Source: a virus (taxonomy: Duplodnaviria; Heunggongvirae; Uroviricota; Caudoviricetes). Taken from it: a stretch of DNA of 64,000 bases. Location: the IMG/VR virus record IMGVR_UViG_3300024268_000001. One strand, 5' to 3'. The notes beneath the pieces were generated by a model. The model saw only the letters and a program-made list of their open reading frames with translations, did not search any database and was not told the origin of the DNA. A program made the translations under genes and the position numbers. Positions 878 to 57,203 of this stretch are shown here, in pieces; position 1 is the stretch's first letter; each line of letters starts with the position of its first letter.

Positions 878-1276
878 TTATTTAAATGTTTCGTTTGTTT
901 TCAATGCTTTTAATATATTTTCTTGTAATTCATGAGACTTCGCAGCATGTTCAGAAAGCTTTTTATCGAATTCACGGTCCTCTTTGAGCTGCTTATTACG
1001 AGCAAGAGCTTGACTGATACGAATAGGAAGGAAAATTGCCATGAAATAACCGAATGCCATTGCAATATATGGTACAATGTCGGTCATAAAATACATTATT
1101 CCTTTCTTAAGTGTATCTCCAAACACACCAAATCCGCCTAAAACTAGGGTATAAACCAAGACCATAATAAGAGTACCGATAACCAGTCCCTTATTGGCCT
1201 TGATATTCACCCAAAAATTCTTAATTTTGGCAGGAAATTTAGACGTATTTTGATTAGATGTCTTCATTGTCTTCAA
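878..1276 (-). CDS. small membrane protein (2 predicted TM helices, coiled-coil C-terminus)
   Basis: Hydrophobic stretches LVIGTLIMVLVYTLVLGGFGVF and IVPYIAMAFGYFMAIFLPI. 3' overlap with the downstream ORF. Confidence 0.5.
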   Translation of the reverse strand: MKTMKTSNQNTSKFPAKIKNFWVNIKANKGLVIGTLIMVLVYTLVLGGFGVFGDTLKKGIMYFMTDIVPYIAMAFGYFMAIFLPIRISQALARNKQLKEDREFDKKLSEHAAKSHELQENILKALKTNETFK

Positions 1277-1583
1277 GAATTACTTCCACTGCAGAATCAG
1301 GAATCTGGTAATACTTCGTCTTAACGTAAGCACCCTTATCATTCTTTGCAGCGATATTGAGTTCGATTGCCTTCAAATCTGTAAAAATAATGCGGTCACC
1401 GACAGATACGGTGCACGGAATTCGAGAATCCGTAACGGCATTATACTTACCTGGGCCAACGGCAACAACTTCGCCATAAACAAGCTTACCCGAGCTATCA
1501 AGTTCCGGAATATAAATACCGCCTGCAGTCTTCGTATCACCGCTACGGCGCTTTACAAGCACATAGTTATCGTTCATCTTCAT
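1254..1583 (-). CDS. GroES-like co-chaperonin (Hsp10 fold; T4 gp31-type analog), copy 2
   Basis: Has the GroES-like features YVLVKR...AGGIYIP...GEVVAVGPG...VGDRIIF. It is a paralog of the upstream ORF. Confidence 0.65.
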   Translation of the reverse strand: MKMNDNYVLVKRRSGDTKTAGGIYIPELDSSGKLVYGEVVAVGPGKYNAVTDSRIPCTVSVGDRIIFTDLKAIELNIAAKNDKGAYVKTKYYQIPDSAVEVILEDNEDI

Positions 1584-1597
1584 AGTTAAATTTCCTT

Positions 1598-1927
1598 TTA
1601 CTTAATTTCTTCGTTATCGTCAAGAATGCAGGTACATTCGTTTTCGGCAACCTTGACCAACTTGAGCTTACTGACATTTCCCTGTTCATCCTTAACAGAA
1701 ACAGTTACTTCAGTTGTGACACCCGGATTATAAATCACACGGTCACCAACCTTGAGTTCAATCGGAGTAAGTTTCTTGGTAAACGGATTATACTTACCCG
1801 GTCCAAGTTTTACAACTGTACCGAGAGCCATAGGAATCGTTCCAATTCGGGGAATAAATAAGCCTCCGACAGTCATTTTGTCGAAAGGTTCCTCTTTTAC
1901 GAGTACGTTATTTTCTGTAGTTTTCAT
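1598..1927 (-). CDS. GroES-like co-chaperonin (Hsp10 fold), copy 1
   Basis: Has NVLVKEEPFDKMTVGGLFIP...GTVVKLGPGKYN...VGDRVIY...KLKLVKV. This is the classic GroES mobile-loop/beta-barrel pattern. Confidence 0.7.
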   Translation of the reverse strand: MKTTENNVLVKEEPFDKMTVGGLFIPRIGTIPMALGTVVKLGPGKYNPFTKKLTPIELKVGDRVIYNPGVTTEVTVSVKDEQGNVSKLKLVKVAENECTCILDDNEEIK

Positions 1928-3773: not shown

Positions 3774-4316
3774 TTATTTTAGTCTTTCAATTATCTTTTT
3801 GACAATTTCGTTATATCCGTCTTCAGTTCCGTCAGCAGTTTCATATTTCAGATTATTTGAATCCAAAAATTCCAATAATCTTCCATCGATTGCCCTAGCT
3901 TCTTCTTCAGTCTGGTTTCGACCGTTAGGATTATACTTCTTTGCACGCTTTACGAAAATATTAAAAGTATTTGGATATTTCTTTGCTTCATAAAGGCATA
4001 CATCCTGATACGGTTTTTCTTCGGTATACATAGCGCCCATTGCAATAGGACTATCTGTAACAATTACGTCAACCTTTCCGAGAAGTCTCGCAACTTTCAG
4101 GCATTGCTTACCGGTTACATATAACTGACAATACTTGAGCGGAAACTGATCATCTTGCCATACACGATCTTTCGCATATTCTGAAACATATTCACAATCA
4201 ACGCCAGCCATCTTAAGTTTCGCAAAAATATAAGCAGCTCCTGTCGACTTTCCCGAACCAGGACCCGCATAAAGATTAACCAATAGAGTATTACATGTTC
4301 TTTTCATAATTTTCAC
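3774..4316 (-). CDS. P-loop NTPase, putative nucleotide/polynucleotide kinase
   Basis: Walker A 'YAGPGSGKST' near the N-terminus. About 180 aa, the size of a small kinase. Upstream promoter-like 'aatatagtaaa' at about 4330. Confidence 0.55.
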   Translation of the reverse strand: MKIMKRTCNTLLVNLYAGPGSGKSTGAAYIFAKLKMAGVDCEYVSEYAKDRVWQDDQFPLKYCQLYVTGKQCLKVARLLGKVDVIVTDSPIAMGAMYTEEKPYQDVCLYEAKKYPNTFNIFVKRAKKYNPNGRNQTEEEARAIDGRLLEFLDSNNLKYETADGTEDGYNEIVKKIIERLK

Positions 4317-4412: not shown

Positions 4413-5600
4413 ATGAAGATTGATTTATCGACTATCAAAAATGACCTCCTCACTTCTGGTATGAAACTCGCTTCCGCTATCGAAAGCAAGGGTTACGAAG
4501 CATATCTGGTTGGCGGTTGCGTTCGTGACATGGTTCGTTGGACTATTGGCCAATGTGGTTTTCCGGATATTCACGATATTGACATCAGCACGAACATGCC
4601 TATCGATGAACTTCAGAAAAACTTCAAAACTGCCAGTAACAATGGCGAAGCTCACGGCACTATTCTGGTTTTCCAGGACGGTGAGCCTTTTGAAGTGACT
4701 CAGTTCCGTACCGATGGCGCTTATACCGATGGTCGTCACCCGGATTCAATCAAGTTCGCCAAGACTTTCAAGGAAGACTGCTTACGCCGCGATTTTACTA
4801 TCAACGCAATGGGTCTTACCGGTCAGGGTGAAGTCATTGACTATTACGGTGGTATCGATGATGTTACGAACGGCATTATCCGAGCTGTCGGTAAGGCAGA
4901 AGACCGTTTTGCTGAAGATTATCTCAGAATTTTCCGCGGTGTTCGTTTCATGGTCAACTTCGACTATTCTTTGGCTGATAGTACCTATGAAGCGATGAAG
5001 ACAACCGTTGATACTTATACTTATAAGATTAACTCTCTGTCTTATCCTCGTATTCGTGATGAAATCAGCAAGGTCAAGAATCCTTCTAAGAATCTCGCTT
5101 TGTTTTTCACGACACTGTATCGTACCGGTATTCTGAAATACTTGGTTACTTTCGAAGATGTTGATATTCCGGGTCTGATTGCACGTTTAGAATCTGTAAA
5201 TCATCTCACTGCGGATAACATCTTTGCGGTTATCGCTTTCGGCGAATACGACGTAATGTTACATCGTCTTGCTGCTACTCGAGAAGATTCTCGTTTGCTC
5301 AAGTGGTATTATTACATGCTCAAGAAGCTGAAAGAACCTAACGAAAATACAAGCTGGGACACTATTGTTAAATTCGTCGAAGGTGATTACAAAACTCTCC
5401 TCGAACTGTCCAAGATTGTTCCTGCCTGGTATAACAGAATTCCTATCGCTTTGAAGCTTAAAAAGGATAAACCCGATTTACATGCTATCTCTGAAAGAGT
5501 TCAGAACGAATTTCATGTTAAACCAGGTCCTAAGTTCGGTGCAGCTGTTAGCTACCTGCTCGAAGAGGCTTACGAAGCAAAAGCAAGGCATCTTCAATAA
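4413..5600 (+). CDS. cca: tRNA nucleotidyltransferase (CCA-adding enzyme) / poly(A) polymerase family
   Basis: 'LVGGCVRDMV' (GGxVRD) followed by 'DIDIST'. These are the class II nucleotidyltransferase head-domain signatures. 395 aa. Confidence 0.8.
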   Translation: MKIDLSTIKNDLLTSGMKLASAIESKGYEAYLVGGCVRDMVRWTIGQCGFPDIHDIDISTNMPIDELQKNFKTASNNGEAHGTILVFQDGEPFEVTQFRTDGAYTDGRHPDSIKFAKTFKEDCLRRDFTINAMGLTGQGEVIDYYGGIDDVTNGIIRAVGKAEDRFAEDYLRIFRGVRFMVNFDYSLADSTYEAMKTTVDTYTYKINSLSYPRIRDEISKVKNPSKNLALFFTTLYRTGILKYLVTFEDVDIPGLIARLESVNHLTADNIFAVIAFGEYDVMLHRLAATREDSRLLKWYYYMLKKLKEPNENTSWDTIVKFVEGDYKTLLELSKIVPAWYNRIPIALKLKKDKPDLHAISERVQNEFHVKPGPKFGAAVSYLLEEAYEAKARHLQ

Positions 5601-5603
5601 AAA

Positions 5604-5632
5604 TAAACCCGGTTTTAAAAACCGGGTTTTCT
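5604..5632. terminator. bidirectional intrinsic terminator
   Basis: The sequence aaacccggtttt-aaaa-accgggttt forms a hairpin flanked by A/T runs. It lies between convergent genes (4413..5600 on plus, 5634..5882 on minus). Confidence 0.7.
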
Positions 5633-5633
5633 T

Positions 5634-5882
5634 TTACTTAGCGGTAGATTCCCAACTGAAAGTAATTGTGTTATTGTCTTCGTCCATTCGAAGGAACTTA
5701 AATTCAAATTCAGAGAATTCAATATCCTTACGTTTCATCGTGGGCGATTTTACTTGAACTTCAAGAACTGGCAAACAGCATTCTCGGAATCGTGTGATTT
5801 GACGAGATGCTCCAGGAGTTCCTTCAGCTTCATCTACAATAGAACATGCTTTAGTTTTCTTATTAACTCTTACAATAACCAT
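5634..5882 (-). CDS. hypothetical small protein
   Basis: 82-aa ORF packed directly against the downstream kinase gene. Confidence 0.4.
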   Translation of the reverse strand: MVIVRVNKKTKACSIVDEAEGTPGASRQITRFRECCLPVLEVQVKSPTMKRKDIEFSEFEFKFLRMDEDNNTITFSWESTAK

Positions 5883-6323
5883 TTAGATTCTCCGTTTAAT
5901 TTTAATTTCGTTTTCCAGATCCTTAAACTGTTCTTTCATGTATGCAACCTTATCTGGCGGTACATTATGAACATTTTGGAATTCGTTATCCATACGATAA
6001 ATCGTGACCTCAATGCCACGAGCTGCCGCCTCTTTCAAATACGGTTTCATATCCTTACGGGTTACAAAAGTATTTGCGACGATAACATACTGAATTCCGT
6101 CGTCTAATGCCTTAAACGCTCTTTCATAACAATTTTTATGGGCATAATAAATTCGTTTTTGGTCGAAATTATAATTACCCTTATCATCATACCAAAAATC
6201 GTCGGCCTCGAAGTGCTTGACTGTATAGCCCTGCTTTTCGAGGTCGGCTTTAAGCGCTTTGGCATAAGTAGACTTTCCGGATCCAGGGATTCCCCTGATA
6301 ATTATTAATGTCTGCTTTGCCAT
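5883..6323 (-). CDS. polynucleotide kinase-like P-loop kinase (kinase domain only)
   Basis: 'IIIRGIPGSGKSTYAK' Walker A at the N-terminus. 146 aa, like the kinase module of T4 Pnk / bacterial Pnkp. Adjacent to an RNA ligase-like gene and a metallophosphoesterase gene. Confidence 0.6.
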   Translation of the reverse strand: MAKQTLIIIRGIPGSGKSTYAKALKADLEKQGYTVKHFEADDFWYDDKGNYNFDQKRIYYAHKNCYERAFKALDDGIQYVIVANTFVTRKDMKPYLKEAAARGIEVTIYRMDNEFQNVHNVPPDKVAYMKEQFKDLENEIKIKRRI

Positions 6324-6514
6324 TTTTCTGATTTCCTATTCTGTGAACCGATATATTATCGCAACCAGTAGAACATTCAGTAAATAGAATTTAAAGAATA
6401 TTCCTAGGATTGTACGACAACATAAGTCTTTGCTTGTGGTTCCTATTGAAGATATGACTAAAAAGAAACATTCCAATAGGAACAACGCCGTTCCATATTC
6501 AAATATAGTTAAAA

Positions 6515-7783
6515 TCATTCTTCAATAGTCCTCTGCACGTTAGAAGGTTCCAATTTTTTGTGAACTGCACGCTTAACAGATGCATAATTAGTGATATTAC
6601 GATTAATGCACTTGATAGCCTGCATAATAGCCCCAATATCGCTCTTATAGTGCTCCAGAGCGTATTCGTAGCGAGAACGCTGGTCTTCGCAAGCCTTCAT
6701 GGTTTCGCGAGCCTCAGCGAGAACTTCTTCAGTACGTTCCTTAACCTGAATGCGGACACTTTCGGCGTATGCACGTAAATCAGGGAATTCTTCAGGAATA
6801 TACAGAACTTCATCATCTACAGGCTTGTAACCGTTAGTCTTGTCGACATGGGCATGGAAGAAATCCTTTTCACAGTCATACGCTACCCAGATATTCCACT
6901 CGCTGAGGCATTCGAATATCTTTGCGAGCTGGCACCATTCATCGGATTTAACCTTGACCTTGAATCCATATTCCGGGAAAGTTACAACATAACCTTCCTG
7001 AGACGAAGGAAGCTTGGTCGCAGTATTTCGAGCGTCATTGAAATTATCGTATTCATAGATTTCTGCCATCTTGATTTGCCAAGTATTGGCATAAGCGCTA
7101 AGTCCAATAATATGCTCTTCAGCACCAGTTTCATTGTCGATAACTGCCAAAAGAACAAGACCTTCAAAATCATAACGAATCGGGTGAAAATCTTCATTTG
7201 AAACAATTTCAAACAAATAAGTTTTCTTCGGATTCAAAGTTGCCGCATGAGGACCGCCGATATGCTGGTCAAACCAACGCTGTCCCCAAATTGCCTGGTC
7301 AGAATCGAAAGATCCACCGGTCTTCAACTGCCAATGCTTAAGATAAGGATTCCAGAATACAATACCTAAAGAACCGTCCACCTTTTCCATAGTCAGGAAA
7401 CGAATAGACTTGAGAATCTTTCGAATATCAATTTTCTTCTGGTACTTCATTACCTTTTTTGCAAGGTCGGTAAGTTCGCCAGTTTCGTTGTTAATCAATT
7501 CGCCATAGTTGAAGAATTTATCAAAAGGACGTGCTACAATTTCGCCGGTTTCAGAATCGAAAACAATACCACGAGCATTGAGAGTAATTTCATCCCAATC
7601 CGATGAATATACTGTTTCACGAGTATACTTGAAACCAACCAGCTTACCATACCAGTGAGCTGAAATACGTCCCTTCTTTGCTGCCTTCAAATACTTACGG
7701 AGTCTGTGCTTGTTCCGCAGTTTCCGGAGTAGGTTCTTCAGCCAAGTCATCATTTTTCTTTTCCACCTTTTTCTTAGGCTCAT
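6515..7783 (-). CDS. RNA ligase-like nucleotidyltransferase (Rnl1-type KxDG motif)
   Basis: 'FLTMEKVDGSLGIVFW' covalent nucleotidyltransferase motif I. 422 aa. The N-terminal 30 codons overlap ORF 7695..7970, so the true start is uncertain. Confidence 0.55.
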   Translation of the reverse strand: MSLRKRWKRKMMTWLKNLLRKLRNKHRLRKYLKAAKKGRISAHWYGKLVGFKYTRETVYSSDWDEITLNARGIVFDSETGEIVARPFDKFFNYGELINNETGELTDLAKKVMKYQKKIDIRKILKSIRFLTMEKVDGSLGIVFWNPYLKHWQLKTGGSFDSDQAIWGQRWFDQHIGGPHAATLNPKKTYLFEIVSNEDFHPIRYDFEGLVLLAVIDNETGAEEHIIGLSAYANTWQIKMAEIYEYDNFNDARNTATKLPSSQEGYVVTFPEYGFKVKVKSDEWCQLAKIFECLSEWNIWVAYDCEKDFFHAHVDKTNGYKPVDDEVLYIPEEFPDLRAYAESVRIQVKERTEEVLAEARETMKACEDQRSRYEYALEHYKSDIGAIMQAIKCINRNITNYASVKRAVHKKLEPSNVQRTIEE

Positions 7784-7970
7784 ACTTATGAGTCTTATCG
7801 AGTTCTACCGTTTCAATAGTACATCCAGCTTCATACTTTTCACGAATGAAACTTTCAAGTTCTCCGCGAACTTCAGTTTCCGTTTCGCCATAACGCTTAA
7901 AAACAAGCGGTCCTGGAATACCTTCAATTAAAACCAAGCACTTATAACGTTGTTTCATTATTTTTCCCAC
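7695..7970 (-). CDS. hypothetical small protein
   Basis: 91-aa ORF with an acidic low-complexity C-terminal tail. Overlaps the start region of the RNA ligase ORF. Confidence 0.4.
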   Translation of the reverse strand: MGKIMKQRYKCLVLIEGIPGPLVFKRYGETETEVRGELESFIREKYEAGCTIETVELDKTHKYEPKKKVEKKNDDLAEEPTPETAEQAQTP

Positions 7971-8650
7971 ATGGCATCGGTTTTGACCAGTTCATCAATG
8001 CTTACTGGACGATACCATGCTTCCCAGCTAACATTGTTTTCGACCATTTTGCCGTTATGGTTATCGACAACGCTAGTCTTGTTGAATTCATGCGTATGAC
8101 CATGAACGAGATAGTCAATAGGCTTACCTTCCGCAAGATACTGGTTCAATGCGGTCGGGTCACCAGTTGTACCGTCATGTTCATTAATCGTTTCATCATA
8201 ATTATAATGCTGCAACAGATAGTTCTTACCATTATACGTAAGGTAAATGTTATCCTTTACCATAGTAATGTTCGGAAACATAGTTTCCTTGACCGGATAG
8301 AGCTTCTTGAACAGAGCATAGTCATGATTACCACGAATCATATACATGTGCTTGAAATTCAACTTGTTCGTGTAATAATCGCCAAACACTTCAAGCAACT
8401 TGCTACCGGGAGTACCGAGAGTAAAATCACCGAGGAAAATGACAATATCATTCGGAGAAACAACAGAATTCCATTGCTTCACAATATCTTCATTCATTTC
8501 CTCGACGGTTACGTACTTTCGTGTACGGTCAAAATGATCCTCGTAACTCGTGCAGAGTTTACGATGATTAACGTGCAAGTCACTGACAATAAAAATCTTT
8601 TCGTTGTGTAATTCTAGTTCCATAATGCAAATATAATAAAAATAAGGCAT
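7958..8650 (-). CDS. calcineurin-like metallophosphoesterase (candidate 2',3'-phosphatase of the RNA-repair set)
   Basis: Metallophosphoesterase motifs 'IVSDLHVNH', 'GDFTLG', 'GNHDY' and 'HGHTHE'. A -10-like 'tatattt' lies 6 nt before the ATG, so the mRNA is possibly leaderless. Confidence 0.7.
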   Translation of the reverse strand: MPYFYYICIMELELHNEKIFIVSDLHVNHRKLCTSYEDHFDRTRKYVTVEEMNEDIVKQWNSVVSPNDIVIFLGDFTLGTPGSKLLEVFGDYYTNKLNFKHMYMIRGNHDYALFKKLYPVKETMFPNITMVKDNIYLTYNGKNYLLQHYNYDETINEHDGTTGDPTALNQYLAEGKPIDYLVHGHTHEFNKTSVVDNHNGKMVENNVSWEAWYRPVSIDELVKTDAMWEK

Positions 8651-9051: not shown

Positions 9052-10170
9052 TTACTTCTGCAGATAATCTTGAATAATCTTTTCATGATGGAAACCCATC
9101 TTCGGAAGATTACCGACACTGAACCATGCTGCATCCTTCGCATCGTCGCCGGCCTTAGCCATCTTCTTTTCCTTACCAGTAACCCTTACAGATACTGCTG
9201 TATCGATAATACGCAAGCGTGGGTCAAACATATGGCTATAGGTCTTAATCTGTTCGAACTTTTCAACTGGGAGGTTCAGAGACGTTTCTTCGCGGAATTC
9301 ACGCTGTGCTGCATGTTCCAAAGAAGCATCAGCCTTTTCAGGAAGTCCGGTTTCCTTATTGATATAATCAACCGGATTAAAGAATCCACCAGGAGTACAG
9401 AAGTAATTCATATACGGTGGTTTCCTACGGCGAATCAACAGAACTTCATCACCGGAAATACCGACAATATCAACCGTGTTTGCAAACTTTCCCCAACCCT
9501 GCTTCTTATAGTTTTCAATCCACTGCTTTTCAAGTTCAGTATAGTTGGTCGGATTCTGGTCATAAAGACTGTTTGTCTTAATCGGATTATCACGGTCATC
9601 CGTAAGTTCGCCTTCTTTTCGGATATATTCAAACACTGGCTTGCTAATCAGTGTCTTAACATCCTTATAGTGGCATTCCGGATTACGGTAGAAAATTTTA
9701 CGAGCTTCGCTACTGGAAATACCTTCAGTCTTAATACCCATGAGATAAGTACAATCATAACCGTACTTCGATTTCAATGCACCATCATTATCATCACGAG
9801 GAATAACCAAGAACTTATAGTTATTCAAAAGCTGATTACCGAACTTCCACTTTCCGTTAACCAAAGAATACCATTCGTCTTCGCCGATAACAATAGTAAT
9901 ATCCTTATCCTTGGTACCGAACTTATGGGAAATGAATTCATAAGTCCTGTTATTCTGAACGAGAATCGTAGGATTCAACTTTCGTGCAGTCATTGCGACC
10001 TTAACCATCGCGACACGTTCATCTACCGGAGTCTTATAATTCTTTTCGTCCGTATTGGAAACAAGAACATAAAGTTCATCGCCCTTACGAACCTTTTTGC
10101 TCACTGCCTTAATAATAGCTTCATGAGCGTGAGTAATCGGATCAAATGCACCACCAATCAAATACTTCAT
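9052..10170 (-). CDS. nadM: bifunctional NMN/NaMN adenylyltransferase - Nudix hydrolase (NadM-like)
   Basis: N-terminus 'GGAFDPITHAH' is the cytidylyltransferase (H/T)xGH motif. C-terminus carries the Nudix box 'LEHAAQREFREETSL'. Strong RBS 'aggaga' 6 nt upstream. Confidence 0.75.
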   Translation of the reverse strand: MKYLIGGAFDPITHAHEAIIKAVSKKVRKGDELYVLVSNTDEKNYKTPVDERVAMVKVAMTARKLNPTILVQNNRTYEFISHKFGTKDKDITIVIGEDEWYSLVNGKWKFGNQLLNNYKFLVIPRDDNDGALKSKYGYDCTYLMGIKTEGISSSEARKIFYRNPECHYKDVKTLISKPVFEYIRKEGELTDDRDNPIKTNSLYDQNPTNYTELEKQWIENYKKQGWGKFANTVDIVGISGDEVLLIRRRKPPYMNYFCTPGGFFNPVDYINKETGLPEKADASLEHAAQREFREETSLNLPVEKFEQIKTYSHMFDPRLRIIDTAVSVRVTGKEKKMAKAGDDAKDAAWFSVGNLPKMGFHHEKIIQDYLQK

Positions 10171-10172
10171 AA

Positions 10173-10565
10173 TTATCTCCTAATATTTCCACAAGATGTA
10201 TGAGCGTCACCCATAATATCGCCCTTGACTGTAATGTTTCCTGCATGGGTTTCAACATCACCTGAAACATCACCACCAATTTCGATATTACCTGCTGCAC
10301 TTTCAACATTACCCATGACGTCGCCAGAAACTGTAATGTTGTTTCCCTTACATACCTTATCTACGTCACCATAGACCGTAATGTTAATAACTTTATCTTT
10401 TACAGTAAAAGACTGATTACCAACAATAACAGTTTCACCCGAAATCTTAACAGAATCTGCGCAAATAGGTTCTTCAACCTTTTTACCGTTAATTTCAATA
10501 CTATCTGTGAGGCATAAACCTTTGAGAATATCTTCAGCCATAGTTTTCCTTATGTTTTTATACAA
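10173..10565 (-). CDS. bactofilin-like beta-helical repeat protein
   Basis: Repetitive 'NITVSGDVMGNVESAAGNIEIGGDVSGDVETHAGNITVKGDIMGD', i.e. a G-[DN]-[VI] periodicity typical of bactofilin/CcmA beta-helix. RBS 'aaggaaa'. Confidence 0.5.
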   Translation of the reverse strand: MYKNIRKTMAEDILKGLCLTDSIEINGKKVEEPICADSVKISGETVIVGNQSFTVKDKVINITVYGDVDKVCKGNNITVSGDVMGNVESAAGNIEIGGDVSGDVETHAGNITVKGDIMGDAHTSCGNIRR

Positions 10566-10577
10566 TATAGCAAAATT

Positions 10578-10596
10578 AAAGGGCTTTGTAAGCCCT
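10578..10596. terminator. intrinsic terminator hairpin
   Basis: Hairpin aagggctttgtaagccctt, with A/T runs on both sides. Confidence 0.6.
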
Positions 10597-10601
10597 TATA
10601 A

Positions 10602-10883
10602 TTATTTAATCGTATATGTTTGACCTTCGTACTCTACAACACGTTCTTTCTTAGGATTTTTAACTTCGACTGCGCACATCTTAAGAGAAAAACCACTTGT
10701 AGTTTCAGCTGTTACTTTTCGTCCAGCGTCATCATCTCGATATGCAAAGCAAGGACCCATACCAGTAATATCCGCTTTTTCATGGAGGTCGCTAAGAATC
10801 ATTATAGGAATCCCGAAAAAAAACAATCCCAAAATTAAAAACAAAACTGGAACTGTCCTATCTAATTTCCACATTATATCCAT
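10602..10883 (-). CDS. membrane protein (N-terminal TM)
   Basis: Hydrophobic segment 'VPVLFLILGLFFFGIPIMIL'. Confidence 0.45.
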   Translation of the reverse strand: MDIMWKLDRTVPVLFLILGLFFFGIPIMILSDLHEKADITGMGPCFAYRDDDAGRKVTAETTSGFSLKMCAVEVKNPKKERVVEYEGQTYTIK

Positions 10884-11293
10884 TATTTACCACCTTTAAT
10901 GAATGTTTCATATTTTGAAAGGGTATTACTGTCAATTTCCGGTTTTTTATGTGTGTGCACCAACCGATACAAAAAACAAGCAAATGTATACGGTGACTTT
11001 AAAATTGTTAAAATTAGTGCAAACAAATTATGTACTATTGCTATACCTGTAATAATTTCAGCTATTGCCAAACCTAGAAGTGCAGCACCGCTATTAATTA
11101 CAGACCATCCAAGATAGCATGCATACGAATGTTCATGCAAATAACAATTTTGTGCCGCACAAACAATTGTCTGGTTTTCATTGTACATTACAAAACAGGT
11201 TATAATGGATGCAATAATTATTGTTGGAAGCCAGTCAAAAAGAAACAGATTCAAGCTATCTGAATCGTTATCTGTCATATATTTCCAAGTCAT
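10883..11293 (-). CDS. multi-pass membrane protein
   Basis: Three or more hydrophobic segments (e.g. PTIIIASIITCFVMY, AALLGLAIAEIITGIAIV). ATGA overlap with the neighbouring gene. Confidence 0.5.
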   Translation of the reverse strand: MTWKYMTDNDSDSLNLFLFDWLPTIIIASIITCFVMYNENQTIVCAAQNCYLHEHSYACYLGWSVINSGAALLGLAIAEIITGIAIVHNLFALILTILKSPYTFACFLYRLVHTHKKPEIDSNTLSKYETFIKGGK

Positions 11294-11641: not shown

Positions 11642-12196
11642 TTACCCCTTCAGAATACCGGCGTGACGTGCCGCAGTAATTGTGGTCAAATCTGTTCCTT
11701 GTCCATCAGCAAAAGTAAGCTTCGTTGCGGAAAAAGAAACAGTATAATACGGATCCTGATTTGGCCTGCTGTTAGTCAACTCCAAAGCGCTGAGTCCACA
11801 AACCTTCACATTTTCATACTTGTACTGGCCCAAAGGCATATGCGGATTATGATTATAAATTTCAAGGGTAATCTTTGCGACTTCGTTTCCATTCTTCAAC
11901 AAATCAACCCAGAATGCGTAATCAACAATAGATGTACGCTTAAAGACGAGCTTAAAACTAAGGTTAGAAGAATCCGTAAATTCACGCATTGCATCAGATT
12001 CTCCCGGGTGACTTGCAGTAATTGCTGAACCTTGACTGGAATTAAGATGGTCGCTAAAATGACCACCCCATGCAGCAATCAAAGCATTATTGCTTGTAAA
12101 GCGAGATTCTGCATTTATATTGAAATCAAACTGTGCCTTTAAACCGTAACCGTCGGGATTTGCAACTTCTTTTTCAGGATAGACTTGATTGTTCAT
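11642..12196 (-). CDS. hypothetical protein
   Basis: 184-aa ORF. The promoter TTGACA-N18-TATATT and RBS 'aaaggaa' lie upstream at 12205-12250. Confidence 0.5.
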   Translation of the reverse strand: MNNQVYPEKEVANPDGYGLKAQFDFNINAESRFTSNNALIAAWGGHFSDHLNSSQGSAITASHPGESDAMREFTDSSNLSFKLVFKRTSIVDYAFWVDLLKNGNEVAKITLEIYNHNPHMPLGQYKYENVKVCGLSALELTNSRPNQDPYYTVSFSATKLTFADGQGTDLTTITAARHAGILKG

Positions 12197-12204
12197 ATTG
12201 GTTC

Positions 12205-12285
12205 CTTTTGTTTATGCATATAATATAGTAAAAATATTCATATTTGTCAACCTAAAAAATAAAAGGCTGACTTGCGTTAACCTTT
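12205..12285 (-). promoter_or_regulatory. sigma70-like promoter plus a degenerate copy of the conserved hairpin element
   Basis: Minus strand reads ggTTGACAaatatgaatatttttacTATATT. Upstream lies 'ggttaacgcaagtcagcc', a variant of the recurring GGTTGACGAAAGTCAGCC element. Confidence 0.5.
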
Positions 12286-12314
12286 TACCCTCACACATCC
12301 AATATTCTTTTTTC

Positions 12315-14243
12315 TTACTTCTTTGTTTCGGAGAACAAATCAATAAGAGTGTCCTTGCTCAACTGAGTCAAATCAAGTCCAACTTCAGAATCCTTATCGG
12401 AATCGTCAACAAATGTAAAGCCTGCTTTTTCAAGAATCGGCTTCAGGTTGACGAACGAACGACACTTATTCTTGAGGTTTTCAATATACACGTCTGCATA
12501 TTCATGATTTGGCACACGTCCACCACCTTGAGTAAGGTCCATGAGGAATACCTTATTGTCTACAATAAGTGCACACTGCTTTTCGCGTTCATTATCAACT
12601 GGAATGATAAATTCAGCGAGAACATTGTTCGGATCCACCTTTACATCCACACGCTGGCTATAATAAGCATCTTTCTTAAGCTTCTTCTCTTGACGAGCAA
12701 CGAAGAACTTAAACTGAGACTTAGGAGAACCATTGTACTGGTTTACCGATACCTTGCCATCAGGACACTTACAGTCAATGTAGAACAATTCTGTTGCTTC
12801 CGGACGAGCTGTAGTCATATCACCCGAGTAAATGATCTTATTCTCATGGTCCTTGTAACTTGCGTTCCAACCATAAGTACCTCCATTAATGTCATACATA
12901 TGAAGGTCAAAATCCTGGGTTCCCCATTCTCCACGCCAATAGATACCAACAACGTTGTGGTCGTCGGACATATCAACGGAAGTGCCAAACGGATAATTAC
13001 CGATGAAGTTCTTTTCAGAAGTCGGCATTGTCAGATTGACATGCTGAGGATAACGAACAGTACATGCCTTATCCTTGATAGACTTGACCAACGAATCTTC
13101 AAGAAGATTGTAGACAACCATCAAGTAGGAATTCAATTCCTGATTAGGCACCGGAGCATCCTTACGAACCCACATCTTGCCGTTACGAATTACATACATC
13201 TTTCCGCTAGCATTCTGGAGCTTAGCGAGAATACCCTGCATGAGCGTGACCTTCTTGAAATTGGTGATTTCACCCTTTGCAAGACGTTCACGAACTTCGT
13301 CCAGCTTCTTGTGTTCAGAAAGTACAGTTTCCCAGAAACCTGCAGTAAACGGCTTATGGTCAGTAACAGCCAAACGACGGATATGGTTAATAACCGAGGA
13401 GTTTGTCTTCTGTCCAACAACAACGGCCTTAAGCTTTGCTGCGGCCTTTCTGAAAGCTTCATTCTTGAAAACTGCCGGCTTACCGTCAACCTTTTGGTTC
13501 TTGAACGCTAAGAATAACGGCTTGAAACGATAGAAAATCGAAGCGAGAGCGTGTAGCTGCTCATCCGACAACTTCGTAAAGTCGACAGTTTCTGCCTTTT
13601 CCTTAATGGCCTTGATAGTCTTTCGGTCCTTGATAAGCATGGCGCTGCCAGTTGCCTTAAAGACGAAATAACGTAACATGTTGAACGGGTCCTTGCCGTA
13701 GATACCTGTTGCATCCATCAATGCTATGGAAGCTTCCTTATTCTTGATGGAATCGACGTCGAGTCCATAAGTATTGAAACGCTTATCTTGCGTAATGAAG
13801 TTCACAAGGACATTAATGGTTTCAGTTTCAAGGGCAATCCCGGACTGGAGCATCTTTACACAGCGTGTATAAATTTCCTCGTCAGTCGCAGGCATAATAA
13901 CCTTGAATGAATTGTACGGAATTTCTACGTCCGGAGCGTTGTTTGGAATATACGCATCGCCCGTATAATTTGTGCCATAAGTAGAGGCATAATGAAGAAG
14001 TTGATCTACCAACAGTTCAAAACGCGTCTTGGACGTAATGTCAGACCACTTAGCATAAAACGTCTTATTGTAATTGGTCTTAGCTTCAGCATTCACCCAG
14101 TCAAGGGCAAGCTTCGAGCAACAGTCGGGATGAATAATCCAACCATACTTTGCTGATTCTGCGTTAACCTCTTCAAAAGAGCGCTTAGAGTTACCTTCTG
14201 CCTTAGGCATGACATTGAACATTGTAATCAACTTAAGATTCAT
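12315..14243 (-). CDS. large hypothetical protein (642 aa)
   Basis: Long uninterrupted ORF with RBS 'gaggaaaaatt'. No motif recognised. Confidence 0.6.
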   Translation of the reverse strand: MNLKLITMFNVMPKAEGNSKRSFEEVNAESAKYGWIIHPDCCSKLALDWVNAEAKTNYNKTFYAKWSDITSKTRFELLVDQLLHYASTYGTNYTGDAYIPNNAPDVEIPYNSFKVIMPATDEEIYTRCVKMLQSGIALETETINVLVNFITQDKRFNTYGLDVDSIKNKEASIALMDATGIYGKDPFNMLRYFVFKATGSAMLIKDRKTIKAIKEKAETVDFTKLSDEQLHALASIFYRFKPLFLAFKNQKVDGKPAVFKNEAFRKAAAKLKAVVVGQKTNSSVINHIRRLAVTDHKPFTAGFWETVLSEHKKLDEVRERLAKGEITNFKKVTLMQGILAKLQNASGKMYVIRNGKMWVRKDAPVPNQELNSYLMVVYNLLEDSLVKSIKDKACTVRYPQHVNLTMPTSEKNFIGNYPFGTSVDMSDDHNVVGIYWRGEWGTQDFDLHMYDINGGTYGWNASYKDHENKIIYSGDMTTARPEATELFYIDCKCPDGKVSVNQYNGSPKSQFKFFVARQEKKLKKDAYYSQRVDVKVDPNNVLAEFIIPVDNEREKQCALIVDNKVFLMDLTQGGGRVPNHEYADVYIENLKNKCRSFVNLKPILEKAGFTFVDDSDKDSEVGLDLTQLSKDTLIDLFSETKK

Positions 14244-14634: not shown

Positions 14635-15504
14635 TTATCGATTTTTTACAAAATCTAAAATATCCTTTTTAACTGATTCGTAGTAGTCATCCCAGATTTT
14701 CATAACTAAATTAATAGTTTTATCTGATACATCATCCATTTTTATCTTTTTTGTATAATTCGGAGATGCATTGAAAACATACTTATCGCCGAGAATGGCT
14801 TGTGCTTCATAAATTGGTGATTTTGAACTTCTTGCTACCCAATCTCCAATCATATATTCTGCCCATCCTAACAATGTTTTATTTCCATGTTCTGTATTTG
14901 GTGTATTCATTCCAGTATTAAAATTTAAAAGTTTAAGATTTCGATTGCCTTGTTTAAATTGACCAGCAATAACTATATCGGCAGGGTTATTTGCCCAACA
15001 GCCACCGTCCATATAAGAGTTTCCATCTTTTTCTATAACATCAAAATATGTAGGTGCTGCTGTTGATGTAAGTACAGCAAATGCCTTTGTTGTATCTTTA
15101 TCACCTAAATCCCACACTTTTTCTACAGAAGCACCATTCATAAATGTTGTTGTAATATAGATAGGTTTTTTCCAATCACTAACTTTACCTTTAAGTTTTT
15201 CTTCTAAAATTTTTTTAAGATTTGTATTATCATATGTTGGACACGTTGGTTTAAGTCGTTTATACCAGGAATTTTTTGTAAAAATTTTCTTTAAATTATC
15301 TTGGTATAATTTAAATATATCATGTGCACTCATACCTTCATTCATACATGCAGCAACTATTGAACCCGTAGAAGTACCAGTATATGCTGATACATAATCA
15401 CCTAATTTTTTACCTAGATCTTGTTCCAATCTGCACATAAATGCTAAAGGTCCCATAGCCAAGGCTCCACCACCTTCAATACTTAAACACAATTGTTTGC
15501 CCAT
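14635..15504 (-). CDS. patatin-like phospholipase
   Basis: Oxyanion-hole 'SIEGGGALAMG', nucleophile elbow 'GTSTG' and catalytic Asp motif 'YMDGGCWANNP'. Very AT-rich codon usage. RBS 'aggaga'. Confidence 0.8.
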   Translation of the reverse strand: MGKQLCLSIEGGGALAMGPLAFMCRLEQDLGKKLGDYVSAYTGTSTGSIVAACMNEGMSAHDIFKLYQDNLKKIFTKNSWYKRLKPTCPTYDNTNLKKILEEKLKGKVSDWKKPIYITTTFMNGASVEKVWDLGDKDTTKAFAVLTSTAAPTYFDVIEKDGNSYMDGGCWANNPADIVIAGQFKQGNRNLKLLNFNTGMNTPNTEHGNKTLLGWAEYMIGDWVARSSKSPIYEAQAILGDKYVFNASPNYTKKIKMDDVSDKTINLVMKIWDDYYESVKKDILDFVKNR

Positions 15505-17202: not shown

Positions 17203-17562
17203 TCATAAACCACGCGACGCTGAACTGGGGGCTTTCTTCATTTTTTCCTTATGTTCATTCATAAGTTTTTCAGCAAGTTCATATGACGGAATATAAGAAC
17301 CAACATCCCATGAAGCATCTTTTGAACAAATATGAGGTTTAGATTCTTCTTTCCAAATATGACTATCACGGTATCTTAAATATCGTTCCATATTATAGGT
17401 CAAGCGAAACCAATTCTTCGAACCGCTATTTATCTTACGATATTCAACAACAAACCATGACGGGTCTCTGTTTACAATACTTGGAGCAACATCAAAATCG
17501 AACGTCGGATATTCATATGTACCGAGTTCTATAATACGATATTCATAAAGCGATTTTTCCAT
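17203..17562 (-). CDS. hypothetical protein
   Basis: 119-aa ORF. ATGA-type junction with the ligase gene. Confidence 0.45.
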   Translation of the reverse strand: MEKSLYEYRIIELGTYEYPTFDFDVAPSIVNRDPSWFVVEYRKINSGSKNWFRLTYNMERYLRYRDSHIWKEESKPHICSKDASWDVGSYIPSYELAEKLMNEHKEKMKKAPSSASRGL

Positions 17563-18716
17563 TAGAACACATATCCTTCACGAGATTTACCGGTTGTAAC
17601 ATTACGCAAGATAGTCGGAATAATTTCACCAGCCTTCGTAATAATAACTTCATGACCGATTTCGATGCCCATATATTCAAGCATGTCAATATTGCACATA
17701 TTTGCACGCTGAACTGTAGTTCCGCAAAGTTCAACAGGTTCAACTACTGCAACCGGAGTCAAATTGCCATTCTTGATAGACCATTCAATGTTAATGAGCT
17801 TGGTCTGAGCAAGAGAATACTTCGGCTTGAGTGCAATCGAGAATTCCGGCAAATAATTGGTTTCAAGATCTTCATAATCAATCAAAGACGTCTTCCAAAC
17901 AAGACCGTCAATCTGATAATCACGTTCTTCATGCCAAATCTGGTCCATAAGAGCGACAGCCTTTTCACCGTTCATGGTTTTAAGGTCGTAAATCTTGTAG
18001 TCAACAACATCAAAACCCTGGTTTTTCATCCAATCAAGCATATCAGACTGAAGTCGGAAATGACGCTTGGTGTTAGAGGCATAGCGAGCTTCATAAACCT
18101 TGATATTAAGCTTTTCACAATCTGCACCGTCGAGATGCTTCATAATACCAGAAGCAGCATTTCGGCAGTTCTTATACTTCGGGAAATACTTTTCCTTAAC
18201 GGACTTGTAAAGCAAAATTTCGCCGCGAATAGTTCCTGTAAAATCCTTATCGACTTTCTTGACGAGACCATTCATCTTAAGAATATTATTGGTAATGTCG
18301 TCACCGTATGTACCATCACCACGGGTAGTACCCTGAACGAACTTTCCATCGACGTATTTAAGCGCAATAGAGCAGCCATCGAGCTTCAAAGGAGCAACGA
18401 CATATTCATGACCATTCATACGGCACTTATTGAACCAGACATCCATTTCTGGAGCCGTATTGGCCTTATTCTGAGAACCCATGATAATATCATGCTTGAC
18501 TTTTTCAAAACCTTCAGTATGGTCCTTACCAACTTCCTTCAAAACATCAGAATCAGGATATTTAGTCTTCAGTTCATCCCAGAGTGCATCAAATTCAATG
18601 TCGCTCATGATAGGAGAATCGGAATTATAATAGGCATCTTGTGCCTGACGGATTTTTGCTTCAAGTTCGTTCTTATTCATGTGATACAATATAGTAAAAA
18701 ATATAGGCTTTGTCAA
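17562..18716 (-). CDS. ligA: NAD-dependent DNA ligase (LigA adenylation + OB domains, short form without BRCT)
   Basis: N-terminal Ia-like 'DAYYNSDSPIMSDIEFDALWDEL'. Motif I 'PLKLDGCSIALKY'. 'TTRGDGTYGDDIT' matches LigA 'ATRGDGttGEDIT'. Confidence 0.8.
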   Translation of the reverse strand: MTKPIFFTILYHMNKNELEAKIRQAQDAYYNSDSPIMSDIEFDALWDELKTKYPDSDVLKEVGKDHTEGFEKVKHDIIMGSQNKANTAPEMDVWFNKCRMNGHEYVVAPLKLDGCSIALKYVDGKFVQGTTRGDGTYGDDITNNILKMNGLVKKVDKDFTGTIRGEILLYKSVKEKYFPKYKNCRNAASGIMKHLDGADCEKLNIKVYEARYASNTKRHFRLQSDMLDWMKNQGFDVVDYKIYDLKTMNGEKAVALMDQIWHEERDYQIDGLVWKTSLIDYEDLETNYLPEFSIALKPKYSLAQTKLINIEWSIKNGNLTPVAVVEPVELCGTTVQRANMCNIDMLEYMGIEIGHEVIITKAGEIIPTILRNVTTGKSREGYVF

Positions 18717-18735
18717 CCTATATTTTAGTTAAAGA
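18700..18735 (-). promoter_or_regulatory. sigma70-like promoter
   Basis: Minus strand reads ggTTGACAaagcctatattttttacTATATTgtatcacATG. Confidence 0.55.
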
Positions 18736-21410: not shown

Positions 21411-23051
21411 TTAGCGACGACGGCGACGAGAAAGTTCAGCAATAACTGTCGGATCGTTCATCATGTCCGAAAGGCTACGTCCAATAGAAGTATTAGCTTC
21501 AGCCGGTTCCTTAGTCTTGTCAACATTCGGAGTTTCCGGACGAGCTTCAGCCTTAGGTTCATTTACGACTTCTGCTTCGGTCTTTTCAACCTTTGGAGCA
21601 CCGGAAACACCAGCGAGTCGGGCACCGAACATAGAACCGAGAACAGTCTTGAGGTCCATACCGAGAGAATCGGTCAAACCGCTAGAAATCTGAGTAAGCG
21701 TCTTGGTAATATCGCCGGTGAGCTTTGCAGTACCGCTTTCACCGTACATATTGATGTTACCAATCTTTTCCATCGGCTTAGCAACTGCACCAGCGATAGC
21801 CGGGAGCTGTTCGAAATACTTTTCAATAGTCTTGAGCTGCATTTCCTGACGAGCTGCATCACCATACTTCTTCATGGCTTCAGCCTTCTGGTCAAGAGCT
21901 GCTGCTTCTGCAAGACCCTTAGCCTTTACAGCATCAGCTTCAGCTTCACCCTTAGCCTTAGTAGCTGCAGCTTCAGCGAAAGCCTTTTCCTTATCAGCTT
22001 CAGCCTTGGCGATAATTGCCTTAGCTTGCTGCTGCTGGGTAAAGAGTGCTGCTTCAGCTTCCTTCTGCTGCTTATAAAGTTCAGCATCAGAACGCTGCAT
22101 CTGAGCCTGCTTATCGGCTTCAGCCTTCTTCTGAATTTCAGCTTCGAGTTCCTTCTGACGGACAGCTACCATGCGTTCACGAATTTCAATCTGCTTTTCC
22201 TGCTTTGCAACTTCTGCAGCTGCTGCAGTAATATTGATGGTCTTCTGCTGTTCCTGCTTCTGAATTTCATAAGCGGCATCAGCTTCGGCCTTCTTAGTAT
22301 CAGAAATTCGCTTAAGGTCAGCCTTCTTAACTTCGAGGTCGTTCTGCTTCTGAGCGATTTCAAGGTTTGCTGCAACCTGAGCATCGTTTGCTGTCTTCGC
22401 TGCTTCAGCCTGAGCAATCTTCACGTCACGTTCTGCATTTGCTCGAGAAATTGATGCAGCCTTCTGAATTGCTACAGCCTTATCAACACCGAGGTTTTCA
22501 ATTACCTTACCGTCGTCCGAGAAGTTCTGAATATTGAAGGTCTTAACGATAATACCGAGCTTTTCAAGATCTGGAATAGCATTTTCAAGAACCTTCTCAG
22601 AAACCTGCTTTCGGTCCGTAACCATGTCGACAAGATTCATCTGGCCGACAATCTCACGCATATTACCCTCAAGCACGTCAACAATCATCGCCTTAATCTG
22701 TTCAATCGGCTTATTGAGGAAGTTCTGGGCAGCTTTCTTAATTGCTTCAGGTTCATCAGAAATCTTTGCATTAACAACAGCGTCAACTGTTACATTAATG
22801 TAGTCCTTGGTCGGAACTGCCTGCTTAGTCTTGACGTCAATCGGAATCAACTTCAAGCTAAGAACGTCAGCACGTTCAAGGAACGGGATCTTGAAACCGG
22901 CATGCCCGATAATTGTTCGAAGCTGTCGGAAACCCGAAATAATAATTACTTCATCCGGCGCCGCCTTAATATAAGACGTAATGAAGAGGATAACGAGGAA
23001 AAGTACGAGCAGGCCGATACCCGCACCGATGAGGATATTTGAACTAAGCAT
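21411..23051 (-). CDS. flotillin-like SPFH/band-7 domain protein (YqiK-like)
   Basis: N-terminal TM. SPFH-like 'PDEVIIISGFRQLR...' region. Then a long Ala/Glu/Lys/Gln-rich coiled coil (AEAAKTANDAQVAANLEIAQKQNDLEV...). 546 aa. Confidence 0.75.
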   Translation of the reverse strand: MLSSNILIGAGIGLLVLFLVILFITSYIKAAPDEVIIISGFRQLRTIIGHAGFKIPFLERADVLSLKLIPIDVKTKQAVPTKDYINVTVDAVVNAKISDEPEAIKKAAQNFLNKPIEQIKAMIVDVLEGNMREIVGQMNLVDMVTDRKQVSEKVLENAIPDLEKLGIIVKTFNIQNFSDDGKVIENLGVDKAVAIQKAASISRANAERDVKIAQAEAAKTANDAQVAANLEIAQKQNDLEVKKADLKRISDTKKAEADAAYEIQKQEQQKTINITAAAAEVAKQEKQIEIRERMVAVRQKELEAEIQKKAEADKQAQMQRSDAELYKQQKEAEAALFTQQQQAKAIIAKAEADKEKAFAEAAATKAKGEAEADAVKAKGLAEAAALDQKAEAMKKYGDAARQEMQLKTIEKYFEQLPAIAGAVAKPMEKIGNINMYGESGTAKLTGDITKTLTQISSGLTDSLGMDLKTVLGSMFGARLAGVSGAPKVEKTEAEVVNEPKAEARPETPNVDKTKEPAEANTSIGRSLSDMMNDPTVIAELSRRRRR

Positions 23052-27528: not shown

Positions 27529-27590
27529 AATATTGCAAATATAGTAAATATTTTTTAACCAATTTTATTTTGTCTTACAAACTTCTGAAA

Positions 27591-28688: not shown

Positions 28689-28697
28689 TGTTTTTCC

Positions 28698-29192
28698 TTA
28701 TATTTTTTCAACCGTTACGCCATTTCGTTCAAGGAACTGAATTCCTTTAGACCCACGGTCATATTTGTTTACGTACATGACATTCTTGATACCTGCGGCA
28801 TAAATAAGTCTTGCACACGATTCACAAGGTTCATGAGAAATAACCATAGAAGCACCGGTTATATTCATTGTCCATTTCAAAGCATAGCCGAGACAGCTTT
28901 GCTCTGCATGGATTTCTTGTTCATTTGCGAATTCATGATGTTTAGCTCTCCATTCCATTTCTGGAACTTCCTTCCACTCTTCTTCCTTATTATCTCGCAG
29001 ATAAAACTTTCCGTTTTCAGATTTGAAAATTTCGTTACAGTTAATTTGTCCTGCTGGAGTACCATTGTAGCCACATGAAATAATACGGCCTTTTTCAACG
29101 AGCAATGCTGCAACTTTCATCCTAGAGCATTTACTAAGAGCTTGATATTCCTTAAGAACTGTTTTATAAAGATGTTTATATTTTAATTCCAT
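28698..29192 (-). CDS. dCMP deaminase (cytidine/deoxycytidylate deaminase zinc-binding family)
   Basis: 'HAEQSCL' and 'HEPCESCARLI' (H[AC]E...PCxxC). Confidence 0.8.
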   Translation of the reverse strand: MELKYKHLYKTVLKEYQALSKCSRMKVAALLVEKGRIISCGYNGTPAGQINCNEIFKSENGKFYLRDNKEEEWKEVPEMEWRAKHHEFANEQEIHAEQSCLGYALKWTMNITGASMVISHEPCESCARLIYAAGIKNVMYVNKYDRGSKGIQFLERNGVTVEKI

Positions 29193-56257: not shown

Positions 56258-56260
56258 AAA

Positions 56261-56284
56261 ATGACGGACCGCCAGATCCGTCAT
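56261..56284. terminator. intrinsic terminator hairpin
   Basis: Hairpin atgacggaccgccagatccgtcat, with a T-run on the minus strand. Confidence 0.55.
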
Positions 56285-57194: not shown

Positions 57195-57203
57195 AGGAAA
57201 ATC

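Follow-up and report, generated by a model that had tools for sequence, protein, structure and literature searches.

Does the two-domain gene at positions 9052..10170 of a 64,000-nucleotide stretch of Caudoviricetes DNA (IMG/VR record IMGVR_UViG_3300024268_000001; the whole stretch is called the window below) make NAD+ by the amidated or by the deamidated route? The gene, referred to here as the fusion, encodes a nucleotidyltransferase domain followed by a Nudix hydrolase domain, and a reading of the letters alone (the sequence-only reading) had assigned it to the NadM/NatV type. That assignment holds for the linker and the Nudix half, which resemble those of NadM-Nudix enzymes; the adenylyltransferase domain is of the NadD type (72 vs. 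14.5 bits, with the inverse pattern in a control from phage B23). Judged by its sequence relationships, the protein is best described as a chimera of a NadD-type adenylyltransferase with the linker and Nudix chassis of NadM-Nudix. Homologues in related huge phages sit in a complete Preiss–Handler operon, together with genes for PncA-like, PncB and NadE proteins. The fusion is probably a nicotinic acid mononucleotide (NaMN) adenylyltransferase, possibly also accepting nicotinamide mononucleotide (NMN), combined with an ADP-ribose (ADPR) pyrophosphatase and acting in NAD metabolism.

Gene, protein and source phage

According to the listing of open reading frames (ORFs), the fusion gene occupies 9052..10170 on the minus strand, starts with ATG and encodes 372 aa. 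Its parts are as follows (residue numbers are those of the protein):

9052..10170, minus strand: complete gene of the predicted bifunctional NadD-type adenylyltransferase/Nudix hydrolase (stop codon 9052-9054; ORF listing and Pfam).
9601..10170, minus strand: N-terminal NadD-type nucleotidyltransferase domain, residues ~1-190 (TIGR00482, NadD structures, Foldseek).
10123..10155, minus strand: GGAFDPITHAH, residues 6-16, the (T/H)xxH nucleotidyltransferase signature, T13-x-x-H16 (family conservation).
9844..9885, minus strand: GEDEW...GKW, residues 96-109, the pyridine-nucleotide-site block of the NadD family (G96, D98 and W108 invariant).
9697..9717, minus strand: ISSSEAR, residues 152-158, second ATP-binding motif, SxxxxR (S153 and R157 invariant; aligned with ISSTxxR of NadD 2h29).
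9487..9600, minus strand: inter-domain linker, residues ~191-228, with the LYxQN...E..F/W.ENYK motif common to NadM-Nudix proteins (hhalign; 2qjo).
9055..9486, minus strand: C-terminal Nudix domain of the NadM-Nudix/NrtR (ADPR-binding) clade, residues ~229-372 (Pfam NUDIX, C-terminal half of PRK05379, structures).
9331..9378, minus strand: subclade-specific insertion of ~13-16 residues (NPVDYINKETGLPEKA) in a Nudix loop, a predicted β-hairpin (alignment and AlphaFold2).
9277..9303, minus strand: REFREETSL, residues 290-298, catalytic REx2EE core of the Nudix box (R290, E291, E294 and E295 invariant in all members examined).

Both motifs picked out in the sequence-only reading, GGAFDPITHAH and REFREETSL, were verified at these residues, and its recognition of an adenylyltransferase–Nudix fusion of pyridine-nucleotide metabolism is borne out by the Pfam domains and by homology to NadD and NadM-Nudix. 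The Pfam matches, CTP_transf_like at residues 4-158 (E 3e-12) and NUDIX at residues 230-368 (E 8e-12), both lie above the gathering score. More than 300 homologues have the same two-domain architecture; in an exhaustive HMMER search, 12,533 representative proteins matched the family at E ≤ 1e-3 and 59 at E ≤ 1e-30, many of them over the full length. Since the catalytic residues H16, S153, R157, W108, R290, E291, E294 and E295 are invariant family-wide, the alignment marks the fusion as a conserved gene and rules out a chance ORF. The AlphaFold2 model of the protein has a mean predicted local distance difference test score (pLDDT) of 90 and a predicted template-modelling score (pTM) of 0.85. 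Almost full-length ORFs overlie several real minus-strand genes on the opposite strand (9070-10203, 17652-18728, 27570-29078, 51926-53002 and 12189-13511, all on the plus strand); they probably reflect codon usage and do not represent genes, and the one antisense to the fusion (9070-10203) yields spurious tblastn matches.

The identical 372-aa protein is present on 45 metagenomic collection blocks, including scaffolds of 224,850 and 428,078 bp; the window lies at roughly 12-76 kb of the longer one (ENA ERZ28594291). Contigs with homologues include IMG/VR viral ones of 415-424 kb and metagenomic ones, whose lengths cluster at ~400-460 kb. The window and its left flank encode a family-B DNA polymerase, UvsX, UvsY, a flap endonuclease, dUTPase, DHFR, dCMP deaminase, ClpP and two copies of Cpn10. 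A megablast search of the region against GenBank phages gave no near-identical match; the source is an uncultured huge phage of the gut/rumen type with a genome of ~428 kb.

Adenylyltransferase domain

In NCBIfam, the N-terminal domain is matched best by TIGR00482, the NadD model, with 71.8 bits over positions 1-191 of its 194; TIGR01527, which models archaeal/NadM-type NMN adenylyltransferases (NMNATs), reaches 14.5 bits across 60 residues. The NadM-Nudix models of PRK05379 cover residues ~185-370 alone, with 38-46 bits (best 45.9) against cutoffs of 354-449 bits; the fusion falls short of the curated whole-protein cutoff, and it lacks a NadM-type N-terminal domain as well. A genuine phage NadM-Nudix protein, gp46 of Synechococcus phage B23, encoded two genes from a nicotinamide phosphoribosyltransferase (NAMPT), served as a control. 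Its full-length score with PRK05379 is 351 bits, against 47 for the archaeal NMNAT model and 19 for NadD, a pattern inverse to that of the fusion (46 bits on NadM-Nudix, through the Nudix half alone, and 72 bits on NadD).

Two profiles, one built from the whole-family alignment and one from the N-terminal domain only, were compared with all PDB sequences. The N-terminal profile matches NadD end to end (2h29, E 1.9e-10; 5llt, 2.6e-9; also 3dv2, 2qtr and 1kam); the NadD matches span E 1e-10 to 1e-8, with human NMNAT1 at 1.5e-5. Archaeal/NadM NMNATs (1f9a, 1m8f) and NadR are found at E 0.28-0.9, the former over 60 residues, and the NadM-Nudix chains 2qjo and 2qjt gave no match to this profile at E ≤ 1. 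The family profile aligns residues 4-190 of the fusion with residues 6-188 of 2h29. According to Foldseek, the N-terminal domain of the AlphaFold2 model superposes best on NadD 2h2a (TM 0.75, root-mean-square deviation (RMSD) 3.0 Å); with the whole model as the query, two-domain NadM-Nudix structures rank first, yet with an RMSD of ~16 Å.

The signature motifs of NadD, namely (H/T)xGH (in a variant form), GxDxxxxLxxW and ISSTxxR, are all conserved as T13xxH16, G96-D98...W108 and S152-S153...R157, respectively. Within the family, H16 never varies and T13 is kept in at least 90% of members, whereas the NadM domain of B23 has HxxH; the third position of T13xxH16 is Ala where NadD has Gly. The GEDEW...GKW block is aligned with VIGTDQYNQL--EKW of Staphylococcus aureus NadD and has no counterpart in the NadM-Nudix of B23. 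The sequence-only reading had considered that the domain might align better to other cytidylyltransferases, such as the glycerol-3-phosphate type; its best matches proved to be NMN/NaMN adenylyltransferases. A glycerol-3-phosphate cytidylyltransferase (GCT/TagD) or phosphopantetheine adenylyltransferase (PPAT) identity was rejected, because the PPAT alignment ends after the first ~60 residues and the matches include no glycerol-3-phosphate cytidylyltransferase. By these profile and motif comparisons, the domain belongs to the NadD/eukaryotic-NMNAT family, not to archaeal NadM, and is a divergent NadD relative, not a certified equivalog.

Linker and Nudix domain

An hhalign comparison of the family profile with B23 gp46 gave a probability of 99.7%, with EKQWIENYKK of the linker paired with ERRFVENYKK, and the alignment with 2qjo covers residues 167-371 of the fusion. 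The closest structures to the Nudix half are 2fml, 2qjo, 2qjt, the NrtR–ADPR complex 3gz8 and AraR 5bs6; NudC is among the weaker Foldseek fold matches. The features of the NadM-Nudix type in this half, an ADPR-pyrophosphatase-type Nudix domain with an intact REx2EE and the characteristic linker, are all present. NrtR regulators possess a degenerate Nudix core. Because R290, E291, E294 and E295 are invariant, the Nudix domain of the fusion is likely to be catalytic and not purely sensory in the manner of NrtR.

The insertion in the Nudix loop, for which the AlphaFold2 model gives short strands at residues 269-270 and 277-278, is found in members at least 49% identical (the window copy and those of loci L010 and L007); it is absent in the distant operon-embedded members and in the NadM-Nudix of B23.

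Operons of related huge phages

On a 399-kb contig, whose fusion is 57% identical to that of the window, an isochorismatase-family protein and a nicotinate phosphoribosyltransferase (NAPRTase) are encoded 7-9 kb downstream of the fusion. The NAPRTase is a bona fide PncB (451 bits vs. a cutoff of 379; 385 vs. 270). PncB loci were taken from IMG/VR and JGI metagenomes and tabulated by tblastn; within 3-kb flanks, a fusion homologue lies on the same strand in 42 of the 68 loci, and a PncA-like gene is present in 33. The same-strand order is fusion, PncB, isochorismatase and NadE (NAD synthase) in locus L021 (8832-12590; IMGVR_UViG_3300028914_000054), and PncB, fusion, isochorismatase and NadE in L041. 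A nadD-type gene is clustered with pncB and nadE for the homologues in L021, L041, L061, L067, L077, L078, L121 and L131, and the PncB/fusion cluster also occurs on a 266-kb contig binned into a metagenome-assembled genome (MAG). No such cluster lies within the part of the present phage that was inspected, ~74 of ~428 kb (the 64-kb window and 10 kb to its left). The NadE of the relatives passes its curated cutoff (172 bits vs. 64), and for one PncA-like protein the closest NCBIfam and PDB matches are nicotinamidase/pyrazinamidase, though below the cutoff. The operon-embedded fusions carry the same combined NadD and NadM-Nudix signature, with TIGR00482 scores of 60-94 bits. None of the ~30 fusion-bearing loci examined was found to contain a NAMPT.

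Among 185,579 species genomes (GTDB), a diverse alignment found three full-length fusion matches, all on MAG contigs, the rest being Nudix alone and mostly from Bacteroidales; a scan of GTDB with close peptides gave no match. Since only three MAG contigs in this set carry the full-length fusion, the family looks phage-restricted. In another viral contig, IMGVR_UViG_3300037455_000543 (L002), the fusion (10001-11125) is 83% identical to the window copy while the neighbouring genes are 24-48% identical, which suggests horizontal transfer of the gene between huge-phage lineages. This contig carries a PncA-like gene ~10 kb from the fusion.

In a Bacteroidales MAG (L133), a stand-alone Nudix gene related to the C-terminal domain of the fusion (6001-6372, plus strand) adjoins a NadD-like gene (6742-7314, minus strand). 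Such a pair could be the cellular source of both halves of the chimera.

Genomic context in the source phage

A Pfam search of the ~77 window ORFs, which included one batch search with unrelated ORFs pooled as one alignment, found no NAMPT/NAPRTase, PRPP (phosphoribosyl pyrophosphate) synthetase, PnuC or NAD synthase, and none of these was found in the 10 kb past the left edge of the window or by permissive tblastn. The expectation attached to the sequence-only reading, that NadV (NAMPT) and PRPP synthetase might be encoded elsewhere in the genome, found no support in these ORFs and this flank, and the genes linked to the fusion in relatives are those of PncB, PncA-like and NadE proteins. Within the inspected part of the genome, the fusion stands alone. 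Downstream of it, in the window and in the syntenic sibling L003, lies an RNA-repair-like cluster (window 4413-8650) instead of NAD genes:

7958-8650: metallophosphatase.
6515-7783: T4 Rnl1-type RNA ligase.
5883-6323: AAA_33/KTI12-like kinase.
4413-5600, plus strand: CCA-adding enzyme.

ARAGORN found no tRNA genes in the whole 64 kb.

Proposed role in NAD+ metabolism

The N-terminal domain would most likely convert NaMN and ATP to nicotinic acid adenine dinucleotide (NaAD) and pyrophosphate, and may also accept NMN. The Nudix domain, inherited with the linker from the NadM-Nudix/NrtR lineage, would most likely hydrolyse ADPR to AMP and ribose-5-phosphate. In the operons of the relatives, a PncA-like amidase would deamidate nicotinamide to nicotinate, PncB would join nicotinate with PRPP to form NaMN, the fusion would convert NaMN to NaAD and NadE would convert NaAD to NAD+. 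The ribose-5-phosphate released by the Nudix half could be turned into PRPP by a PRPP synthetase, presumably that of the host, so that both products of NADase cleavage, nicotinamide and ADPR, could be recycled. In the present phage, the lone fusion would work with unlinked phage genes or with PncA, PncB and NadE of the host; its effect would be to increase or replenish the NAD+ available to phage enzymes such as the LigA-type ligase, possibly against NAD-depleting defences. The domain families, the conserved motifs and the gene linkage in relatives are direct observations, from which the substrate preference, ADPR hydrolysis and any part in counter-defence are inferred.

In the Preiss–Handler route, NadE is required only when the product of the adenylyltransferase is NaAD. 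The co-operonic NadE therefore argues for NaMN as the substrate of the family's N-terminal domain, which its descent from NadD would fit. Within the NadD family, some enzymes are specific for NaMN and others have dual specificity, and NMN is accepted by some.

Several observations weigh against the proposed role. The TIGR00482 score of 71.8 bits is below the curated equivalog cutoff of 112.45 bits. The first His of the nucleotidyltransferase motif is replaced by Thr, as in PPAT, and the TxxH variant is family-wide. Sequence alone does not reveal a preference for NaMN or NMN, and the substrate of the Nudix domain is made uncertain by the insertion in its loop and by the non-canonical spacing of the Nudix box. 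Neither the 64-kb window nor the adjoining 10 kb on the left yielded PncA, PncB, NadE, NAMPT, Prs or PnuC, and scans of IMG/VR and JGI with a PncB alignment revealed no PncB-bearing contig attributable to this phage. The pathway context in this phage is an extrapolation from relatives 28-61% identical.

Three NAD+ reconstitution pathways (NARPs) are known in phages: NARP1 (Adps and Namat) and NARP2 (Nampt and Nmnat, in Vibrio phage KVP40) (bioRxiv 10.1101/2024.02.11.579819), and NARP3 (PnuC-like and NadR-like proteins; PMC13464706). Experiments in both papers showed that NAD+ rebuilding counters NAD-depleting defence, which establishes the general concept, put forward in the sequence-only reading, of phage NAD+ regeneration as counter-defence. 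None of these pathways uses the deamidated PncA/PncB/NadD/NadE route, and no phage 'NARP4' was found in the searchable literature. A further-reaching proposal, tentative and on balance doubtful, is that NadD-Nudix with PncA, PncB and NadE constitutes a fourth, phage-specific Preiss–Handler pathway of this kind, which would rebuild NAD+ from both NADase products and let huge phages of gut Bacteroidota-type hosts escape depletion of the Thoeris, SIR2 or DSR type. The same proposal has the fusion arise within phages, by the joining of a NadD domain to the linker and Nudix half of an ancestral NadM-Nudix protein, and pass between huge phages by horizontal exchange.

Alternative functions

Among other explanations, the one that survives best, though unlikely, is that the fusion is a NadM/NatV-type NMN adenylyltransferase–ADPR pyrophosphatase serving amidated salvage through NadV (NAMPT), the NARP2 pathway of KVP40. 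The order of the two domains is identical, the linker and Nudix half are homologous and the match to PHROG 395 is colinear; NMN is accepted by some NadD-family enzymes, and the inspected ~74 kb leave room for a NAMPT elsewhere in the genome. However, comparison with the B23 control places the N-terminal domain with NadD, and neither the window nor the ~30 fusion-bearing loci contain a NAMPT, the linked genes in relatives being those of PncB, PncA and NadE. That no NAMPT was found here is at variance with the usual joint occurrence of the two enzymes: an Nmnat homologue is reported for 94% of the phages that have a KVP40-type Nampt (Osterman et al., bioRxiv 10.1101/2024.02.11.579819).

Two further genes of the window bear on a nicotinamide-riboside (NR) route:

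3774..4316, minus strand: AAA_28 P-loop protein, a possible ribosylnicotinamide-kinase-like partner (unproven; Pfam AAA_28, 29.6 bits vs. a cutoff of 27).
35971-37122, minus strand: major facilitator superfamily (MFS) transporter (best match the L-lactate transporter model SfMCT, 204 bits, below cutoff; oxalate/formate antiporter family).

The Pfam family AAA_28 includes the ribosylnicotinamide kinase (RNK) domain of NadR. The AAA_28 protein, encoded ~5 kb downstream of the fusion on the same strand, scores above the Pfam gathering threshold and its gene is kept in the syntenic sibling L003, so that the two proteins might form a split NARP3-like route, from NR through a kinase to NMN and on to NAD+. 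This is very unlikely. The protein has no NCBIfam match and gave only weak RecA P-loop matches in the PDB, with no match to NadR or nicotinamide riboside kinase structures; its single-sequence AlphaFold2 model (pLDDT 55) is unusable. In all lineages other than that of L003, AAA_28 is absent beside the fusion, and, lying within the RNA-repair-like cluster, the protein may instead be a polynucleotide or nucleoside kinase. No PnuC was found, and the MFS transporter, being of the lactate/oxalate-formate type, was rejected as an NR importer.

It is equally improbable that the fusion is not primarily an enzyme of NAD synthesis, with a Nudix domain that degrades ADPR-derived defence signals or NAD-capped RNA, or senses ADPR non-catalytically as NrtR does, and an N-terminal domain that adenylylates another substrate (PPAT-like or FMNAT-like): the PPAT-like TxxH motif, the closeness of the Nudix domain to NrtR-type ADPR-binding domains, the weaker NudC fold match and the neighbouring RNA ligase, kinase, phosphatase and CCA-adding genes would fit this, but PPAT is matched over the first 60 residues only and NadD end to end, with the GxDxW pyridine-site block, the REx2EE core is intact where NrtR regulators have a degenerate one, and the RNA-repair neighbourhood is unconserved in other lineages whereas the PncB/PncA/NadE linkage is conserved.

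Comparison with known systems

The preferred reading, a NadD-type NaMN adenylyltransferase joined to an ADPR pyrophosphatase, sets the fusion between two known enzyme types. With NadM-Nudix proteins (Synechocystis slr0787, 2qjo; Francisella, 2qjt/2r5w; NatV of KVP40; gp46 of B23), it has in common the domain order, a homologous linker and Nudix domain and the top two-domain fold match, as well as, presumably, ADPR pyrophosphatase chemistry and a role in NAD recycling. It differs from them in its NadD-family N-terminal domain, with TxxH instead of HxxH and a GxDEW...W block absent from NadM, in the partners of its relatives (PncB, PncA and NadE, not NadV) and, in the subclade of the window, in the extra Nudix-loop hairpin. 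With bacterial NadD (S. aureus 2h29, Bacillus anthracis 3dv2, B. subtilis 1kam), residues 1-190 share an end-to-end sequence and fold match and the ISSSxxR and GxDxxxxLxxW motifs, and the operon partners PncB and NadE fit a Preiss–Handler role; NadD, however, is a single-domain protein of ~190-210 aa, whereas the fusion adds a Nudix domain, has Thr for the first motif His and scores 72 bits against 112.

Huge phages of gut and rumen with similar gene sets have been described. The 174 gut 'NAD-jumbo phages' include ones with pncB-nadD-nadE clusters, more than 50% encode NAD-dependent ligases and the hosts of the main clade are Bacteroidota (Li et al. 2024, Microbiome, PMC11662467). These phages are like the fusion-bearing ones in their nadD genes, clusters and ligases, but nadD is annotated there at the KEGG level, and no Nudix domain or nicotinamidase is mentioned. 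The occurrence of nadD/pncB/nadE and LigA in jumbo phages was thus published in 2024, while the NadD-Nudix chimera and its link to PncA appear undescribed. The value of the present finding is tempered by that earlier publication and by the lone position of the fusion in this phage.

NAD+ rebuilding by phages has recently been recognised as a general counter to NAD-depleting immunity, with three routes shown experimentally, and the fusion family suggests an additional one, deamidated, in huge gut/rumen phages. Since the pairing of an adenylyltransferase with an ADPR hydrolase has arisen with two different adenylyltransferase families, the coupling of ADPR recycling to adenylylation may itself be selected. 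The family is also an annotation trap: at the Pfam level, CTP_transf_like with NUDIX mimics NadM/NatV and directs attention to NadV, when the partners actually encoded beside it are PncA, PncB and NadE.

NAD-dependent DNA ligase

17562..18716, minus strand: N-terminal piece of an NAD-dependent DNA ligase (Ia, adenylation and OB domains), presumed to consume NAD+ and lying apart from the fusion gene (TIGR00575, Pfam).

The LigA-type ligase of the sequence-only reading was confirmed at this position by a TIGR00575 score of 281 bits. Pfam finds the Nlig-Ia (weak), adenylation and OB domains; the protein covers LigA model positions 1-382 of 652 (the N-terminal 60%) and is without the Zn-finger, HhH and BRCT modules. 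Its translation contains the KLDG adenylation motif and the YY...SDxEFD motif of Ia; because of KLDG and the recognisable NMN-binding segment of Ia, it is plausibly NAD-dependent. Translation probably begins at the ATG that follows the listed TTG by 12 codons, since the gene called in L001 encodes 372 aa. In relatives, the C-terminal HhH/BRCT part of the ligase is encoded by a separate gene of 258-271 aa (LigA model positions 391-652; e.g., L010, 12075-12851), and no such separate piece was found in the 64-kb window. LigA-type ligases are common in phages, with 552 matching GenBank records.

Other genes of the window

The MFS transporter (35971-37122) is an unusual auxiliary gene for a phage. 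The window carries other unusual cargo:

1254-1927, minus strand: two tandem Cpn10 (GroES-like) genes.
14635-15504, minus strand: patatin-like phospholipase.
21411-23051, minus strand: SPFH/flotillin protein.
27591-28688, minus strand: M16 (insulinase-type) peptidase.

Both the coding strand and the GC skew switch at ~56 kb, and ~20 consecutive plus-strand ORFs of ~93-128 aa follow (window ~55600-63400).

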